IMG/VR virus record: IMGVR_UViG_3300020360_000012
Coordinates: 1 to 26,357 of that record
Strand: one strand, 5' to 3'
DNA length: 26,357 bases
Source: a virus
Lineage: Duplodnaviria; Caudoviricetes
The position numbers were made by a program, and so were the translations under genes. Shown here one piece after another: positions 2,232 through 26,357 of this stretch; position 1 is the stretch's first letter, and every line of letters starts with the position of its first letter. Below the pieces are notes generated by a model. That model saw only the letters and a list, made by a program, of their open reading frames with translations. It was not told the origin of the DNA and searched no databases.

Positions 2232-3110
2232 ATGTTAGACATTGTAAACAAAAATGACTATGACTTCCCTGTAGAAATGGTAGAACTTCAAGCCATCAAT
2301 GCAGACGGACTTGGTGCTGAAGATAACTACACAGTACCGAAAGACTTGGCACGTGCTTGTGTGCGTACTGATACCGGACAGGTGCTAGGTATTCACGGCA
2401 GTAAATACAAACCAATCAATCACAATACTGTTGTCAAGACAATTGAATCAAGTGTGGATAAAATGTTAGCAACATTGAACAAGTCTATTGATTCAGAGGA
2501 TATTGATTACAAGGTAAAAGTATATGACAACGGCGCAAAAATGCGAGGGTCATATACTTTCAAGAACCTTGTAATACAACCAAAACTAGATGACATTGTA
2601 GCATTTCGTATCAACTTTTTCAATAGCTATGACCAATCTTGGGCGTTTCAATCTATTGCAGATGGCCTCCGACTTTGGTGCCTCAATGGTTGCACAACAC
2701 CTGCAACAGCTACTAAAGTAAGATACAAACATACAACCAAAGTATCTATTGATTGTGTCAAACAAAAAATGATTGATGGTTTCAATTATTTCAATGACCA
2801 AGAAGGTACATTCAAAATGTATGCACTTACAGATGTACAAGACCATGTAGTTGAAGCATTCTTCAAACACACATTATGTAAAACATTTACACGTAGCACA
2901 TCTTCATTGCCGTGGAATATGTTTCAGTTTGAAGAACTTATGCGTCAGTACGACAAAGAAAAGTCTACACTAGGTAGAAACTTATGGGCTGTATACAATA
3001 CTATGACTCATTGGGCTACCCATGTAGGTAATCACAAGACACAAAAACGCAGAGAAGATGAAGTAGCTAAAGCACTTTCATCACCTAAATCAATCTTTAC
3101 AGGAGTATAA
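2232..3110 (+). CDS. DUF932 (LGT_TIGR03299-like) phage/plasmid protein
   Basis: Motifs RTDTGQVLGIHGSKYKPINH, NSYDQS, LRLWCLNG, RYKHT and NLWAVYNTMTHWATH; strong AAGGAG RBS. Confidence 0.85.
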   Translation: MLDIVNKNDYDFPVEMVELQAINADGLGAEDNYTVPKDLARACVRTDTGQVLGIHGSKYKPINHNTVVKTIESSVDKMLATLNKSIDSEDIDYKVKVYDNGAKMRGSYTFKNLVIQPKLDDIVAFRINFFNSYDQSWAFQSIADGLRLWCLNGCTTPATATKVRYKHTTKVSIDCVKQKMIDGFNYFNDQEGTFKMYALTDVQDHVVEAFFKHTLCKTFTRSTSSLPWNMFQFEELMRQYDKEKSTLGRNLWAVYNTMTHWATHVGNHKTQKRREDEVAKALSSPKSIFTGV

Positions 3111-3111
3111 T

Positions 3112-3342
3112 ATGAGTCAAAAGCAACAAGTCTTAGAACATCTTAAGCTACACAGAAGTATTACACCAATCGAAGCACTAAATATGTATGCTTCTTTTAG
3201 ATTAGGTGCTATAATTTTTGAACTACGCAAAGAACATTATATCAATACAATACTTGTAGATGATGTAAACAAATTTGGCAAACCAGTACAGTATGCCAAA
3301 TATATGTATGTCGGCGCAATAGAAAGTAAGGGGAAGAAATGA
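3112..3342 (+). CDS. Winged helix-turn-helix protein (HTH_39-like)
   Basis: SQKQQVLEHLK..RSITPIEALNMYASFRLGAIIFELRK...VAKY-type pattern of small phage wHTH proteins; AGGAG RBS. Confidence 0.8.
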   Translation: MSQKQQVLEHLKLHRSITPIEALNMYASFRLGAIIFELRKEHYINTILVDDVNKFGKPVQYAKYMYVGAIESKGKK

Positions 3343-3845
3343 ACTACAAACAGCTAGTTCAAGAACTAGCACAGGTACGAAAAGACTTACGGCTTTGTAG
3401 CCGTGCTCTATCCGATAGGATAGGCGTGGCGGAATCGTCCGTAAGTCTTTGGGAGTGTGGCAAAAAAGTGCCTAATGCACAACTGCTTATGGATTGGTGT
3501 ACTGCATTAGGTACAACACTTACTATGCTTCACGGCAAGACAACCATTTCAATTGAATATCAACCTTGCCAATACACACTAGATTGGATAACCAAAACTT
3601 ACGGAGAGCACTATGACTATAACCAAGAACGAGAAATCTTTATTGACTATTACAAATCAACTGGAGCAATTAAAAGCGATTGGCACGCTTCCTTCAGAAA
3701 CTGGCTCAGACGAGCACAAAAATTTGCCAATACACGAAAAAATACGGAAAGCAACTTGGTCGTCAGTTCCGAGGGCGTTCAAGAAAGACGTCAACGAATC
3801 TCTAATGTTACTAACATACGACTTAAAACACAAACCAAGGACTGA
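3339..3845 (+). CDS. XRE/Cro-type HTH fused to a DnaT-like replication-initiator domain
   Basis: N-terminal VRKDLRLCSRALSDRIGVAESSVSLWECGKKVP (Cro/C1 HTH); C-terminal FIDYYKSTGAIKSDWHASFRNWLRRA (F.DY.....K.DW.A.FRNW, DnaT-type/phage replisome organiser). Confidence 0.75.
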   Translation: MNYKQLVQELAQVRKDLRLCSRALSDRIGVAESSVSLWECGKKVPNAQLLMDWCTALGTTLTMLHGKTTISIEYQPCQYTLDWITKTYGEHYDYNQEREIFIDYYKSTGAIKSDWHASFRNWLRRAQKFANTRKNTESNLVVSSEGVQERRQRISNVTNIRLKTQTKD

Positions 3846-4230
3846 TGCTATCAGTACAGCGGCGTCGTTTTATCTTGATGATGTCTTACACAAAATCAGA
3901 GCATGGTACAAGGTAATGCAACCGGCTTCAACGAAAACAGTCGGTATGGTGCTAGAAACTATTGCATCAACATTCAGTTGCAATGTACCTAATGAACTTG
4001 GACTAAGTGTTTATATAAAAATACTAAGTCGTTTTCCAGAATTTGTACTGACATATAATACAGAAAAAATTATTGCCAGTGCAAAATGGCGAAGGCTTCC
4101 ATTACCTAAAGAATTTCTTGATGTAATGGAGCCAGATTTTGAACGCCACAAGTTGTGGCTACAAAACTTTCACCAAACCTATTTGTCGTTTGCACAATGG
4201 CGACAAAGACGGTATAATACAACAATATAA
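3613..4230 (+). CDS. Putative helicase loader (G39P/lambda P-like position); start uncertain (3613 or 3805)
   Basis: C-terminal YIKILSRFPEFVL...KWRRLPLPKEF resembles loader/inhibitor proteins that follow phage initiators. GGAG RBS before ATG 3613, none before ATG 3805. Confidence 0.5.
   Translation: MTITKNEKSLLTITNQLEQLKAIGTLPSETGSDEHKNLPIHEKIRKATWSSVPRAFKKDVNESLMLLTYDLKHKPRTDAISTAASFYLDDVLHKIRAWYKVMQPASTKTVGMVLETIASTFSCNVPNELGLSVYIKILSRFPEFVLTYNTEKIIASAKWRRLPLPKEFLDVMEPDFERHKLWLQNFHQTYLSFAQWRQRRYNTTI
4190..4218 (+). promoter_or_regulatory. sigma70-type promoter for the recombination operon, overlapped by an inverted repeat
   Basis: TTGCAC (4190-4195), 17 nt, TATAAT (4213-4218). IR TTTGTCG (4182-4188) / CGACAAA (4201-4207) brackets the -35. 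Confidence 0.65.
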
Positions 4231-4253
4231 TAACAATAAAAGGAGTTAATCTC

Positions 4254-5054
4254 ATGTATAAAAGAAAACACACTATCGGTGGTAGTGATGCCACTAGAAT
4301 TATGAAAGGCGATTGGTACAATTTGTACAATGAAATCAAAGGTTTTCAAAAACCAGAAGACTTGGAATGGAAAGTATCAGTATGTATTGGTCAAGCAACC
4401 GAAGCACTTAATCGTAAATTTTTTGAACATGAAAGTGGTATGCAAGTATCTACATATTATTGGTCTAATGCACAATTTCCAGACAGAGTAGATTGGCGTC
4501 ATGCAAGTTATGATGGCATTTGCTTAACCTCTACAAGAAATTGGGTGCCACTTGAATGTAAGCATACCTACCATACTAACAATATACAAAAAGTTGTAGA
4601 AACATACTATGCACAACTACATCATTATATGCTTGTGTCTGGTATTGACTTTATTTATTTATCTGTATTCTTTGGTAACTTTGAATATCAATATTGCAAA
4701 GTAAGTAAAGATAAAAAGTATATGAATGAACTTATCAAACAAACTGACAAGTTCAAACAGATGTTAGATACAGATACTATTCCATCACGTGATGTAGAAG
4801 AACACAAACATATCAAATCAATTGTACTAGATGACATGATTTCAATTGACTATGACAAAAAGAAAAACAATGAATTTACTTCACTAGCTACAGAATGGTG
4901 TACAACAAAAGATACACATGATTTACATAAAGAATTAGGTAAACAATTAAAAGATATAGTACCTAGTAATTGTAGGTTTGCCTCTGGTTCGGGCCTCCAG
5001 ATAGCCCGAAACAAGGCAAACCATTTGTCAATTCGTAAAATGAAAGGAGCATAA
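4254..5054 (+). CDS. YqaJ/lambda-exonuclease-family viral recombinase nuclease
   Basis: IGGSDA, ASYDG, LECKHT and YYAQLHHYMLVSG motifs; AAGGAG RBS. Confidence 0.9.
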   Translation: MYKRKHTIGGSDATRIMKGDWYNLYNEIKGFQKPEDLEWKVSVCIGQATEALNRKFFEHESGMQVSTYYWSNAQFPDRVDWRHASYDGICLTSTRNWVPLECKHTYHTNNIQKVVETYYAQLHHYMLVSGIDFIYLSVFFGNFEYQYCKVSKDKKYMNELIKQTDKFKQMLDTDTIPSRDVEEHKHIKSIVLDDMISIDYDKKKNNEFTSLATEWCTTKDTHDLHKELGKQLKDIVPSNCRFASGSGLQIARNKANHLSIRKMKGA

Positions 5055-5555
5055 ATGACAAATACAATCAAAACTAATATGGATATTTGGAAAACTTTAG
5101 GTAGAACTAATCCCAAATATACCAAACCATTTCAAAAGTTTGGTGGTAAAACACTTACAACTATTGACCCAATGTATCAGATTATGATGATGACCGATTT
5201 GTTTGGCCCAGTAGGTCAAGGTTGGTCATATCACGTAAACTATACCTACACAGACAAATGTGTATTTGCAGAAGTATCTATTAGATATTGTGTAGCCACA
5301 AAACTAGATAAACAATGGTATAAATATGGCCCGGTATCTTCTGTACAAGCATTATACAAAAAGAATGGTGGGCTTGATGATGAGGCACCAAAGAAAGCAA
5401 TGACAGATGCTATGACTAAAGCATTTAGTCACCTTGGCATGTCAGCAGATGTCTTTCTTGGGTTATTTGATAGCAGTAAATACATTGAAAAAACAAGAGA
5501 ACACTTTGCAGTAATTGATGCAGAAAGGAGAGTATCTAATGGCAAGTCTGAATGA
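5055..5555 (+). CDS. Rad52/Sak-like single-strand annealing protein
   Basis: LTTIDPMYQI...LFGPVGQGWS and DDEAPKKAMTDAMTKAFSHLGMSADVFLG..D.SKY; located between exonuclease and SSB. Confidence 0.82.
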   Translation: MTNTIKTNMDIWKTLGRTNPKYTKPFQKFGGKTLTTIDPMYQIMMMTDLFGPVGQGWSYHVNYTYTDKCVFAEVSIRYCVATKLDKQWYKYGPVSSVQALYKKNGGLDDEAPKKAMTDAMTKAFSHLGMSADVFLGLFDSSKYIEKTREHFAVIDAERRVSNGKSE

Positions 5556-5982
5556 AGTGCAACTTATCGGTAACACGGGTATTGACCCCGATATAAAACA
5601 AACATCTAATGGTAACAAGTATGCAATCTTTACTTTTGCAACTACAGATAAAAGAAAAGACGCACCAGATACAACACAATGGCATAAGGTTGTGTGTTGG
5701 GATGAACGATTAGCTGATACAATTGAGCGTTTTGTCAAGAAAGGTGACAGACTTTATATCAAAGGTAAACTTGTATACAGAACATTCGAACACGAAGGTG
5801 TAGAAAAAGAAAAAGCAGAAGTTCATATGGAAAAATTTTCTAGCAAACTTGTAATGCTTGGAGGTAATGCACCCAAAAAAGTATCTATGATTACTTCAAA
5901 AGAACAAACACGACCATCTGATACAGAAGAAAAAACAGAAGAAAAAGTATACAGAACATTTGAAGATGAGGTACCATACTAA
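5539..5982 (+). CDS. ssb: Single-stranded DNA-binding protein
   Basis: MASLNEVQLIGNTGIDPDIK, TQWHKVVCW, KKGDRLYIKGKL and acidic tail EDEVPY; AGGAG RBS supports start 5539. Confidence 0.95.
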   Translation: MASLNEVQLIGNTGIDPDIKQTSNGNKYAIFTFATTDKRKDAPDTTQWHKVVCWDERLADTIERFVKKGDRLYIKGKLVYRTFEHEGVEKEKAEVHMEKFSSKLVMLGGNAPKKVSMITSKEQTRPSDTEEKTEEKVYRTFEDEVPY

Positions 5983-6194
5983 TGACTAAAAATGAACTCA
6001 AGGTTTTGAAGTTCGTGCGGAACTTCATTGCACAAAATACCTACAGCCCTAGCTATGAGGAAATTGCACAGGGCTGTGGGTACTCTGCAGGTGCAAACGC
6101 TTATAGAATTTGTATGCAACTCGTACAAAAAGGCTACCTTGCTAAAGAACAAGGCAAATGGCGGAACTTGGTGGTAGCTAATGGGAAAATTTAG
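5982..6194 (+). CDS. LexA-type N-terminal DNA-binding-domain protein (no peptidase domain)
   Basis: MTKNELKVLKFVRNFIAQNTYSPSYEEIAQGCG.......ICMQLVQKGYL matches the LexA winged helix pattern; only 70 aa. Confidence 0.8.
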   Translation: MTKNELKVLKFVRNFIAQNTYSPSYEEIAQGCGYSAGANAYRICMQLVQKGYLAKEQGKWRNLVVANGKI

Positions 6195-6495
6195 TAAACG
6201 TAAAGGCTATAGAGTTGAGGCCAAACTTGTCAAAGAACTGAATCGAGGTGGCATTGAATGTCGTAGACAACCTATGTCTGGTGCTATACAAGACTTTCCC
6301 CATGATATAGAAATACGTGAACCAAGAATGACGGTAGAAGTAAAAGCACGAGCAAATGGTGAAGGCTTTAAAACTTTAGAGCGTTGGAAAGGAGGTGCAG
6401 ATATACTAGCACTTCACAAAGACCACGGCACTACGCTTATGTGCCTTGATATTAACTTATTTATTGAATTATTAACAAGAAAGGAAACACAATGA
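6181..6495 (+). CDS. Holliday junction resolvase, Hjc-like PD-(D/E)xK nuclease
   Basis: SKRKGYRVE..LV..L, RRQPMSGA, HDIEI and VEVKAR motifs. Confidence 0.82.
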   Translation: MGKFSKRKGYRVEAKLVKELNRGGIECRRQPMSGAIQDFPHDIEIREPRMTVEVKARANGEGFKTLERWKGGADILALHKDHGTTLMCLDINLFIELLTRKETQ

Positions 6496-23687: not shown

Positions 23688-24512
23688 CTATTCCTGAATT
23701 ATACATTGAATCATACCTTCACCATCAATCTCAACTGCACCCATACTCATGTAAGATGTAATTAAGTTTGAAACTTTTTCAGGTATGTAGTTAACTTCAG
23801 TTCTAACGTCAGAACCCATAGCAAGACCAACTGCTGATTTATGATAGGCATGACAATCTCTGTTACTTCCAGAAAGTGTCAATCCAGAATGTGTAAACCA
23901 CATAAAGCCTAACCATCTTTTTGCAGTAAGACCACCTGCATAAGGTAAATCATTCTCGCCTACATATTCTGCTCTTGAGAACTGGTCTATTTGTAATAAG
24001 TCTGCCCAACCCGCAGATGATACTACAAAATATCTTTGCCCATCATCTGGAATATCTCCAGAACCAAATGCTTCATAAACAGTTAATGCTTTAGCCAAAG
24101 TAAGACCTGCACTACCATGTGCAACATTGTTACTGTTTGAACCTGCATCTAATATATCGATAATTAGTTGGTCAGTTTTTCTACCTAGTGCAGATGCCGC
24201 ACTTTGAGAAAGAACTTGTCTTTCGTCAATGTTTGTTTTCAACTCGTCTAGTCTATCGACATAATCTGCCGCATAGAAATCTGATAGAGTTACATCTACA
24301 GTATTGTGAGTAATTTCCATAGTTGGAACATTAGCGTGTCTGCTTTTTTCAGTAGCAGAGCCTTTACCCACTTTTTGGAATCTCGCTTGAGAACCCTTAA
24401 CATTATTAAGCGTTCTGACAGTATTCTTTAATTTTGAGCCCATACGCTGATAAGCCATGTGGACTTCACTTTCAAATTGCTTAATAAATGCAGTTGTAAT
24501 GGAAGTTGCCAT
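23688..24512 (-). CDS. Major capsid protein
   Basis: ITTAFIKQFESEVHMAYQRMGSKL, VDRLDELK, ALGRKTDQLII and WLGFMW; strong AAGGAG RBS; downstream of the scaffold. Confidence 0.92.
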   Translation of the reverse strand: MATSITTAFIKQFESEVHMAYQRMGSKLKNTVRTLNNVKGSQARFQKVGKGSATEKSRHANVPTMEITHNTVDVTLSDFYAADYVDRLDELKTNIDERQVLSQSAASALGRKTDQLIIDILDAGSNSNNVAHGSAGLTLAKALTVYEAFGSGDIPDDGQRYFVVSSAGWADLLQIDQFSRAEYVGENDLPYAGGLTAKRWLGFMWFTHSGLTLSGSNRDCHAYHKSAVGLAMGSDVRTEVNYIPEKVSNLITSYMSMGAVEIDGEGMIQCIIQE

Positions 24513-25095: not shown

Positions 25096-25877
25096 TATTT
25101 GCCACGATATAGTCTATTAAAGTCTGCATCTACTTCTTTTACATATGCAGGGTCTCTATGTCGGCTATCAAAATAACGTGGGTCACGCATTTTTGCTCGT
25201 ACATCTTCAATAGTTAGTTGTGCTCGTGGCTGATATTGTTGTTGTGACCCAATAGATTGTTTATTGTTTTCCATAAGTGTTTCTAAAAACTCTATTCCTT
25301 CACTATCTTGTCCTAGTCTTTTTACAAGATATTCTGTTGTATCGGGTGTATATGCTACATCTAGCCACTTTTCTATTGCTTCTAATCGTGCTTCACCATT
25401 TTCTCCCAACTTTGCAAACTCTTCATCAGCATTGGGTGCTTGAGAGTGTACATGGTCAAAATAAGCATTGATACCTCTCTGAAATTCTTCTTGGGTATAC
25501 GCATTTTCTTTGCAATGGTCTGTCCACCATTTACCTATTTCTGAGTCTTGTGCCTCTTCAACAGTTATATTTTCTGGAAGTTCTGCCCACTCATATGTTT
25601 CTGGTGCATCTGCAATAGCTTCATCAGATAGTTCATTTATTATCTCATCTCTTAATTCTTCTTTTTTTCCTCCAACAAATTGTTCTAAATGTGCATTTGA
25701 TTTTAATAAATCATCTGTACGCACTTGTCCTGTTTCTGCGTTCCAAAACTTTTCTGGCACATTTTCTGGTCGTTCTGAAATTGTTTCACGTGAAACATTT
25801 TGAGTTTCATCAACAGGATTTACAGGTTGTACTTCATCTACATTTGGTTGTTCTTGTACTTGGGTTTCATCGGACAT
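25095..25877 (-). CDS. Capsid scaffolding protein
   Basis: Acidic; RPENVPEKFW near the N-terminus and MRDPRY.....DPAYVKEV at the C-terminus (T7 gp9-like); AAGGAG RBS. Confidence 0.85.
   Translation of the reverse strand: MSDETQVQEQPNVDEVQPVNPVDETQNVSRETISERPENVPEKFWNAETGQVRTDDLLKSNAHLEQFVGGKKEELRDEIINELSDEAIADAPETYEWAELPENITVEEAQDSEIGKWWTDHCKENAYTQEEFQRGINAYFDHVHSQAPNADEEFAKLGENGEARLEAIEKWLDVAYTPDTTEYLVKRLGQDSEGIEFLETLMENNKQSIGSQQQYQPRAQLTIEDVRAKMRDPRYFDSRHRDPAYVKEVDADFNRLYRGK
25782..25797. promoter_or_regulatory. parS: Perfect parS centromere palindrome
   Basis: TGTTTCACGTGAAACA, 16/16 identity to the widespread bacterial chromosomal parS consensus; encodes (N)VSRET in the scaffold N-terminus. 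Confidence 0.8.
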
Positions 25878-26157
25878 TTAGTTTCTCCTTTACTATGTTT
25901 TGGCTTAAACCTTTATTGGTTCTGCGCTGAATAAGTCCTACCAAATATCGTTGTCCTTCAAGATGTCGTAATGCAGAATCCGTTATCTCTGACCCTGCAA
26001 CTGCTTCTATTGTAATAGATTTAAGATATTCTAATACTTGTTTGCCGTTTGGCTGTTTGAAAACACTTTGAAACAAATCATTAAGTTGTGCTTCATCATC
26101 TGGTTTTCGTGTGAAATTATCAAGTCCAACTAAACTTTGGTTAGGAATTGGTTTCAT
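25867..26157 (-). CDS. Bbp19-like small protein between portal and scaffold
   Basis: FQSVF..PNGKQVLEYL.......LRHLEGQRYLV..I pattern and gene position. Confidence 0.7.
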   Translation of the reverse strand: MKPIPNQSLVGLDNFTRKPDDEAQLNDLFQSVFKQPNGKQVLEYLKSITIEAVAGSEITDSALRHLEGQRYLVGLIQRRTNKGLSQNIVKEKLNVR

Positions 26158-26163
26158 TGTAGT

Positions 26164-26192
26164 AACATACTATGTTATGTAACAGCTTTCAA
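26164..26192 (-). promoter_or_regulatory. Candidate internal sigma70 promoter for the head operon (possibly leaderless)
   Basis: TTGAAA (26192-26187), 17 nt, TATGTT (26169-26164). Predicted start falls at about ATG 26157, which has no SD. Palindrome TAACATA-C-TATGTTA (26163-26177) overlaps it. Confidence 0.5.
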
Positions 26193-26357
26193 GGCTTTAT
26201 TAACTTGGTCAGTAGAAACTGGGTTTCCTTCTTGTTGTTGTGTTTGTGCAAACTGTTGAAGTTGTTGTGCCGCTTCGGTCATTTCTTCATTACTGCGTAT
26301 TAATTCTTCTGGTACACCCAGTTTTTTTGCAATAAATTTGGCGGCCACATCTTGTTT
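26175..26357 (-). CDS. Portal (head-tail connector), C-terminal fragment
   Basis: Not in the track. KQDVAAKFIAKKLGVPEELIRSNEEMTEAAQQLQQFAQTQQQEGNPVSTDQVNKALKAVT*; the LGVP..LIR motif plus Q-rich tail is typical of T7 gp8-like portals. Confidence 0.82.
   Translation of the reverse strand, partial: KQDVAAKFIAKKLGVPEELIRSNEEMTEAAQQLQQFAQTQQQEGNPVSTDQVNKALKAVT

Follow-up and report, generated by a model that had tools for sequence, protein, structure and literature searches.

Use of a host partition protein by a phage is known from phi29, a phage of spore-forming Bacillus whose parS sites were reportedly the subject of an original study by Meijer et al. in 2005. phi29 uses the host protein Spo0J (ParB) through five parS sites, and Bacillus phage Nf also carries parS (PMC2731898). 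As set out in that account, the host partition protein is proposed to segregate phage DNA, ParB binding has been shown or supported for phi29, and phi29 profits by having its DNA trapped in the prespore, an outcome in which Spo0A boxes also take part (PMC2731898). Partition of extrachromosomal phage DNA is also known from P1 ParABS and from the parABS cassettes of cluster A actinophages, in which ATPase, binding protein and cognate site all belong to the phage (PMC11652158). In the literature searched, which was mostly open and without supplements, phi29 and Nf were the only printed cases of host-parS use, a result that does not establish absence from print.

Here we describe a 16-bp parS of the chromosomal type on a marine podovirus genome. 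The window, by which we mean the whole stretch of DNA analysed, comprises 26,357 nt of IMG/VR record IMGVR_UViG_3300020360_000012 (Caudoviricetes) and is a partial genome. Like phi29 and Nf, this phage has a host-type parS on its own genome, and it shares with phi29 the lack of a ParA or ParB of its own (none in five records); it does not share the presence of several sites per genome. phi29 differs from it in that its linear, protein-primed genome bears five sites and its host sporulates (PMC2731898), whereas the window phage has one site, placed in the codons of a structural gene, to which ParB would bind, and its presumptive host is a marine alphaproteobacterium with a single chromosomal parS. 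Borrowing of a host parS is thus already known from phi29; what differs here is a single, codon-embedded site and an inferred host that is non-sporulating. To our knowledge, SAR11 does not sporulate, so spore entrapment cannot apply to the window phage if the host inference given below holds. The chromosomal ParABS systems of Alphaproteobacteria use the same 16-bp site (PMC7383237), but the phage carries only this cis-acting component, and ParA, ParB and SMC would be those of the host. No ATPase and binding-protein cassette of the kind found in P1 and cluster A actinophages was found in the window phage, and with no phage ParA or ParB found in five records the system is not of the P1-like phage-plasmid kind.

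A chromosomal-type parS within the scaffold gene

The original prediction, made from the letters of the window, was that a perfect parS lies in the acidic N-terminus of a scaffold gene, where it reads VSRET, and that such a match has a chance probability of about 1e-5. Each of these statements held. The 16-mer equals the consensus parS (PMC7383237), occurs exactly once in the window with no further site at up to three mismatches, and is expected there by chance only 0.8-1.5e-5 times under Markov models of order 0 to 4. The ORF translation gives the peptide as stated, and the ORF matches Pfam family PF05396, the T7 capsid assembly protein (E 2e-7, 32 bits, cut-off 27.1); a homologue carries the name scaffolding protein. 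The parS codons sit in a hypervariable, acidic, Q/E/P-rich segment (about residues 1-35), and no repeats were found around the site besides the palindrome itself and chance-level pairs. Contigs from four public runs have 26 variable positions over 25500-25950 and none in the 16-mer, where, with uneven cover, about one would be expected, so that this comparison is given no weight.

A candidate promoter had also been proposed about 370 bp from the site. A sigma70-like match does exist there (Table 1), but promoter-like sites as a class are not above chance in the window (4 found against 6.7 in shuffles), and the candidate is not kept at this place in all lineages that carry parS. As for the neighbouring portal gene, PF12236 matches the portal of one further genome, G004.

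Table 1. Positions in the window of parS, its neighbours and other genes referred to in the text
Feature	Position	Strand	Basis or remark
Palindromic chromosomal-type parS, 16 bp, perfect	25782..25797		Codons N27 (3rd base)-V-S-R-E-T32 of scaffold gene
Capsid scaffold (assembly) gene, 260 aa	25095..25877	-	PF05396 and alignment
Small Bbp19-like gene between portal and scaffold	25867..26157	-	PF25181
Portal (head-tail connector) gene, 3' end, cut by window edge	26175..26357	-	Portal-like C-terminal motif of L162 and position
Sigma70-like promoter candidate, weak	26156..26183	-	9/12 matches; 360-385 bp from parS
Major capsid gene	23688..24512	-	85% identical to capsid of EXVC031P Hodr; basis of host inference
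Replication/recombination genes (HTH and replication-initiator-like protein, RecE/YqaJ-like exonuclease, SSB, RusA)	3339..6495	+	

The minus strand of the window encodes head, tail, internal virion and lysis genes, and the plus strand encodes the replication and recombination genes. No match to a DNA polymerase was found among the 33 window ORFs scanned, and a replication gene set of this composition provides a context for host-dependent replication. A second record, G383, is near-identical to the window (99.96% over 11.3 kb) and has a completeness rating of 78%. We searched five records, namely G383, three near-complete IMG/VR genomes and the cultured phage Hodr (see below), for ParB (PF02195), ParA (PF13614) and tyrosine integrase (PF00589), and found none of the three in any record; control genomes in these searches behaved as expected. 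The absence of parA and parB that had been noted for the window extends to the near-identical record, in which no tyrosine integrase was found either. No serine recombinase was found among 67 ORFs scanned with Pfam, and no immunity or maintenance module was identified in the phage family. Integration at the host parS, with the 16-mer as attP, was also considered, and was rejected, as no tyrosine integrase was found in the five records. There is one parS in the window and one in each of the complete genomes G003 and G004.

Conservation of the 16-mer among related phages

For comparison we took the best 80 of 439 viral and the best 80 of 318 metagenomic relatives, a sample in which carriage counts are biased towards the query. 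The 122 unique complete scaffold genes kept of 164 extracted form 35 clusters at 80% identity, each with one representative; the distant, GC-rich L005-L007 and any gene containing N or incomplete codons did not enter the codon and tree analyses. Among these best 80 plus best 80 relatives, 19 of the 35 lineage representatives carry the peptide V[S/P][R/H/Q/N]ET, and the remainder of the scaffold N-terminus around the motif is barely alignable between them. All 19 use the codons GTT, TCA or CCA, GAA and ACA, and all 15 that have arginine encode it by CGT, which accounts for 18% of the arginine codons in these genes. A single lineage would have the parS codons by chance in 1.3% of cases for VSRET and in 1.7% for VPRET. 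When carriers from the same best-matching relatives are compared in pairs, which are not independent of one another, the codon is the same in every comparison within the motif (V 171/171, S 78/78, R 105/105, T 171/171), as against frequencies of 0.45 for V, 0.40 for S, 0.47 for R and 0.48 for T in the gene core (40-48% overall for V, S, P, R and T). A single codon is kept in none of 38 conserved four- or sixfold degenerate columns of the core. Because synonymous sites in the core are near saturation, shared ancestry alone is insufficient to account for the frozen codons of the motif. Across 62 distinct carrier N-termini from the best 80 of each set, all 35 with arginine use CGT. Free variation of codons beneath a constant peptide, which the original prediction had named as evidence against itself, was thus not seen: the motif codons do not vary among carrier lineages.

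The same prediction had asked whether the site moves between genes, and in one lineage, L162, it does lie outside the scaffold gene. Within 1.91 Mb of family loci, which are redundant and derive from the best 80 of 439 and best 80 of 318 relatives, the scaffold gene holds 63 of the 64 sites at up to one mismatch. The 64th is the perfect parS of L162, which sits in non-coding DNA separating the portal gene from the Bbp19-like one, 0.3 kb upstream of a scaffold gene whose product is without the peptide. An asymmetric variant of parS occurs in both orientations, as VPRET and as VSRGT; the VSRGT homologue was predicted to be the reverse orientation of the VPRET variant, and the DNA of relative L427 agrees. 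By these comparisons the parS 16-mer is conserved as DNA, not as peptide. Together with the host ParB and the frequency of the 16-mer among viruses, both described below, they give good support to its reading as a site under selection for host ParB.

Carriage is patchy. In the sample of best 80 viral and best 80 metagenomic relatives, the motif peptide is missing in 16 of the 35 lineage representatives, and carriers are scattered on the core-gene tree, with at least eight state changes in which gain and loss are indistinguishable. No site at up to two mismatches is present in G386, G387 or G390, which are near-complete genomes of the family, and 12 other cultured phages, including 10 pelagiphages, are all without a parS site. 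Hodr, the only cultured member of the family, has a two-mismatch centre in its site, and conservation in the Hodr clade is weaker (70 of 77, against 0.68 in the core), which may reflect weak binding or decay. The family thereby holds a natural series of perfect, one-mismatch, two-mismatch and absent sites; judged from this distribution, parS is an accessory element, acquired by some lineages and weakened or lost in others. As a separate matter, L097 and L098, both from one 46-kb metagenome contig, contain the same scaffold region twice, probably because a circularly permuted genome was assembled as a concatemer.

Partition machinery of the presumptive host

The closest cultured relative of the window is Pelagibacter phage EXVC031P Hodr, whose host is HTCC1062. 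Matches to Hodr were found for 17 of 27 window proteins, and the scaffold is 47% identical, compared with 85% for the capsid. Because of this relationship, and by it alone, we infer that the host is SAR11. Genome bins were tried as another route to the host and rejected; the phage family occurs in them only on two phage-sized contigs (L165 and L166), in bins of unrelated taxa, and these are probably mis-binned. No publication on phage Hodr was found in our literature search. In records OQ414635.1 and OQ414636.1, of Hodr and Baldr, the locus tags are swapped relative to the organism names. The early genes of Hodr include an ArdC-like anti-restriction gene (L008:13573-14454), instead of which the window (2232-3110), G003 and G004 have a DUF932 gene. 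Two plus-strand window ORFs in different frames, 3339-3845 and 3613-4230, share 233 bp, and each of them aligns with Hodr (42% over 161 aa and 40% over 189 aa, respectively). The overlap may be genuine, or it may be a shadow cast by the conserved DNA, the true start then lying further on.

We sampled 61 genomes of the presumptive host order, reached via G137 and 1.0-1.5 Mb in size. The order is taken as Pelagibacterales because the ParB of one member matches proteins named Ca. Pelagibacter and Pelagibacteraceae. A host without ParB had been named as a finding that would count against the original prediction; ParB is present in 59 of the 61 genomes, in line with the conserved parA-parB pair described in bioRxiv 10.64898/2026.04.03.716430. 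All 31 host-order ParBs compared have R173 and G201, which are described as parS-specificity residues (PMC7383237). The parS pattern at up to one mismatch is found in 57 of 61 genomes, and the reversed control in 1 of 61. One canonical parS is present in each of 56 genomes (46 perfect, four TGTTCC-type and six first-base variants), and the 57th has an unrelated near-match only. The variants of the host site are of the same kinds as those of the phage.

The host parS lies about 1.4 kb upstream of parB and precedes parA-parB. In 29 of 31 loci (L256:2-631, L232-L260) it forms part of the reading frame of rsmG (gidB), at the 5' end of that gene, and reads V[S/P]RET. The host hides its own parS within rsmG in a similar, in-frame manner, with the same reading as the phage copy. 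SMC was found in all five host-order genomes searched; PopZ was not found in the host genomes, and MipZ searches of five gave weak ParA-like matches only. Two observations on these proteins may be recorded here. SMC of the host order is short, with frames of 858-891 aa against a 1181-position model (G331, G371, G353, G343, G324), and in 8 of 31 host-order ParBs (among loci L240, L249, L250, L255, L256, L258 and L260) a lysine stands where Caulobacter ParB has R204, which has been described as a conserved residue of ParB and Noc. Other small alphaproteobacteria, found via the SAM-V family, have parS near parB in 10 of 10 regions at up to one mismatch. Since they share the site, the 16-mer cannot identify the host, and for the same reason the reading in terms of ParB is independent of the exact host.

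Possible roles of the phage parS

The protein that reads the phage parS is, very probably, the ParB of the host. We propose a fuller explanation, to which we give a probability of roughly 55%, in which a host-type parS under selection at the DNA level loads host ParB, and host ParA and SMC position and pass on phage DNA that is not integrated. The infecting genome would circularise, a host ParB clamp would load at the phage site and spread with CTP, and ParA and SMC would then position the phage DNA and, at division, transmit it without integration. The phage would benefit from having its DNA treated like the host origin while an infection of a slow-growing cell stays latent or paused for long, in a carrier-like state. 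We favour ParA/SMC positioning as the mechanism because one chromosomal parS with parAB is known to suffice for the stabilisation of unstable plasmids (PMC7022226, PMC4368675). The variable scaffold N-terminus probably hosts the site simply because, in a genome with little room to spare, holding five codons constant does little harm there. That the site keeps its position at the head operon is as compatible with local regulation as with segregation.

An alternative, which we consider unlikely, is that the site serves titration or sabotage: after replication, tens of phage copies would out-compete the single parS of the host, disperse ParB and SMC from the origin, and stall chromosome segregation. 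With one canonical parS in each of the 56 host genomes, even a few phage copies would outnumber it, and one site per phage genome would suffice. Titration leaves the fixed position of the site unexplained, however. In Caulobacter-type cells ParB is linked to division, and from the PopZ and MipZ searches above such a link seems to be missing in the host order, which also counts against it. It is not exclusive of ParA/SMC-mediated inheritance, with which it is compatible.

A regulatory role is rather unlikely. ParB at the site would spread over, or road-block, the head operon and delay the late genes according to the state of the host (the level of ParB or CTP), acting as a switch that defers lysis. 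The site is always at the start of the head operon, either in the scaffold gene or 0.3 kb upstream; in L162 a promoter-like site precedes parS by about 70 bp; and a single parS can alter expression 5 kb away in Streptococcus (PMC7022226). Against this, the effects of parS on expression in that source are modest and selective (PMC7022226), the promoter candidate of the window is at chance level, L148 has no promoter-like match in 900 bp, and L154 has chance-level ones only. Moreover, four lineages with a perfect site have just an 8-nt ribosome-binding gap before the small gene, which weakens damping of a nearby promoter. Of the ways in which the original prediction had the phage borrow host ParABS, this damping has lost ground. 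Those conditions named there as refuting that could be checked by computation all came out in favour of a selected site for host ParB.

It is very unlikely that the selected palindrome is read by a phage regulator or by the packaging machinery, the parS match being an inherited coincidence. The phage does encode HTH proteins, the centre-degenerate versions in the Hodr clade retain the arms only, and many viral parS copies elsewhere adjoin terminase genes; but all 16 bases are those of the host consensus, the tolerated variants mirror those of the host, the same 16-mer is found in unrelated phage groups, and near-complete family genomes are without the site, as would be unexpected of a packaging signal. 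Conservation of VSRET as a protein motif, or a start of host rsmG acquired neutrally or by chance, the DNA match being incidental in either case, is highly improbable and was rejected: peptide-like conservation in 45 of 73 close homologues and the identical peptide at the start of host rsmG are in its favour, but synonymous sites are frozen in the motif only, the changes to VPRET and VSRGT preserve parS (as the DNA of L427 bears out), L162 has a non-coding copy, and the chance expectation is 0.8-1.5e-5.

By extrapolation from 2 of 64 parts of IMG/VR, the exact 16-mer is estimated to occur in about 5,700 stretches, including any host-contaminant ones; a single control palindrome of equal composition occurs in 8 stretches in a full scan. 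We examined 80 of 139 parS loci (L261-L340) and scanned 89 selected ORFs. Most matches near viral parS are phage genes, including phi29-like polymerase and terminase, microvirus-like replication proteins and lambda-like terminases. This suggests that many unrelated phage groups borrow host parS. Individual genomes differ in where the site lies: phi29-like genomes contain several parS sites, in the microvirus-like genomes L269 and L299 parS is beside the replication gene, and in the lambda-like phages L284, L290, L300, L303, L324 and L326 it adjoins terminase genes.

Tentatively, and as a possibility that we hold less likely than host-mediated inheritance as such, integrase-less SAR11 podoviruses may have an unrecognised carrier state, in which they would mimic the only centromere of the host and be inherited through divisions of a slow-growing cell via ParA, ParB and SMC, an example of what would be a common strategy among viruses. 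To account for the few hosts that abundant SAR11 phages seem to turn over, pseudolysogeny or chronic infection has been put forward (bioRxiv 10.1101/2022.09.19.508504), and a mechanism has so far been lacking. The idea is directly testable with protein-neutral changes to the 16 bp, the graded natural series of sites, a single competing host site and a cultured phage-host pair. If true, parS mimicry would offer a molecular way into the pseudolysogeny suggested for pelagiphages, and would extend the borrowing of host parS beyond spore entrapment.
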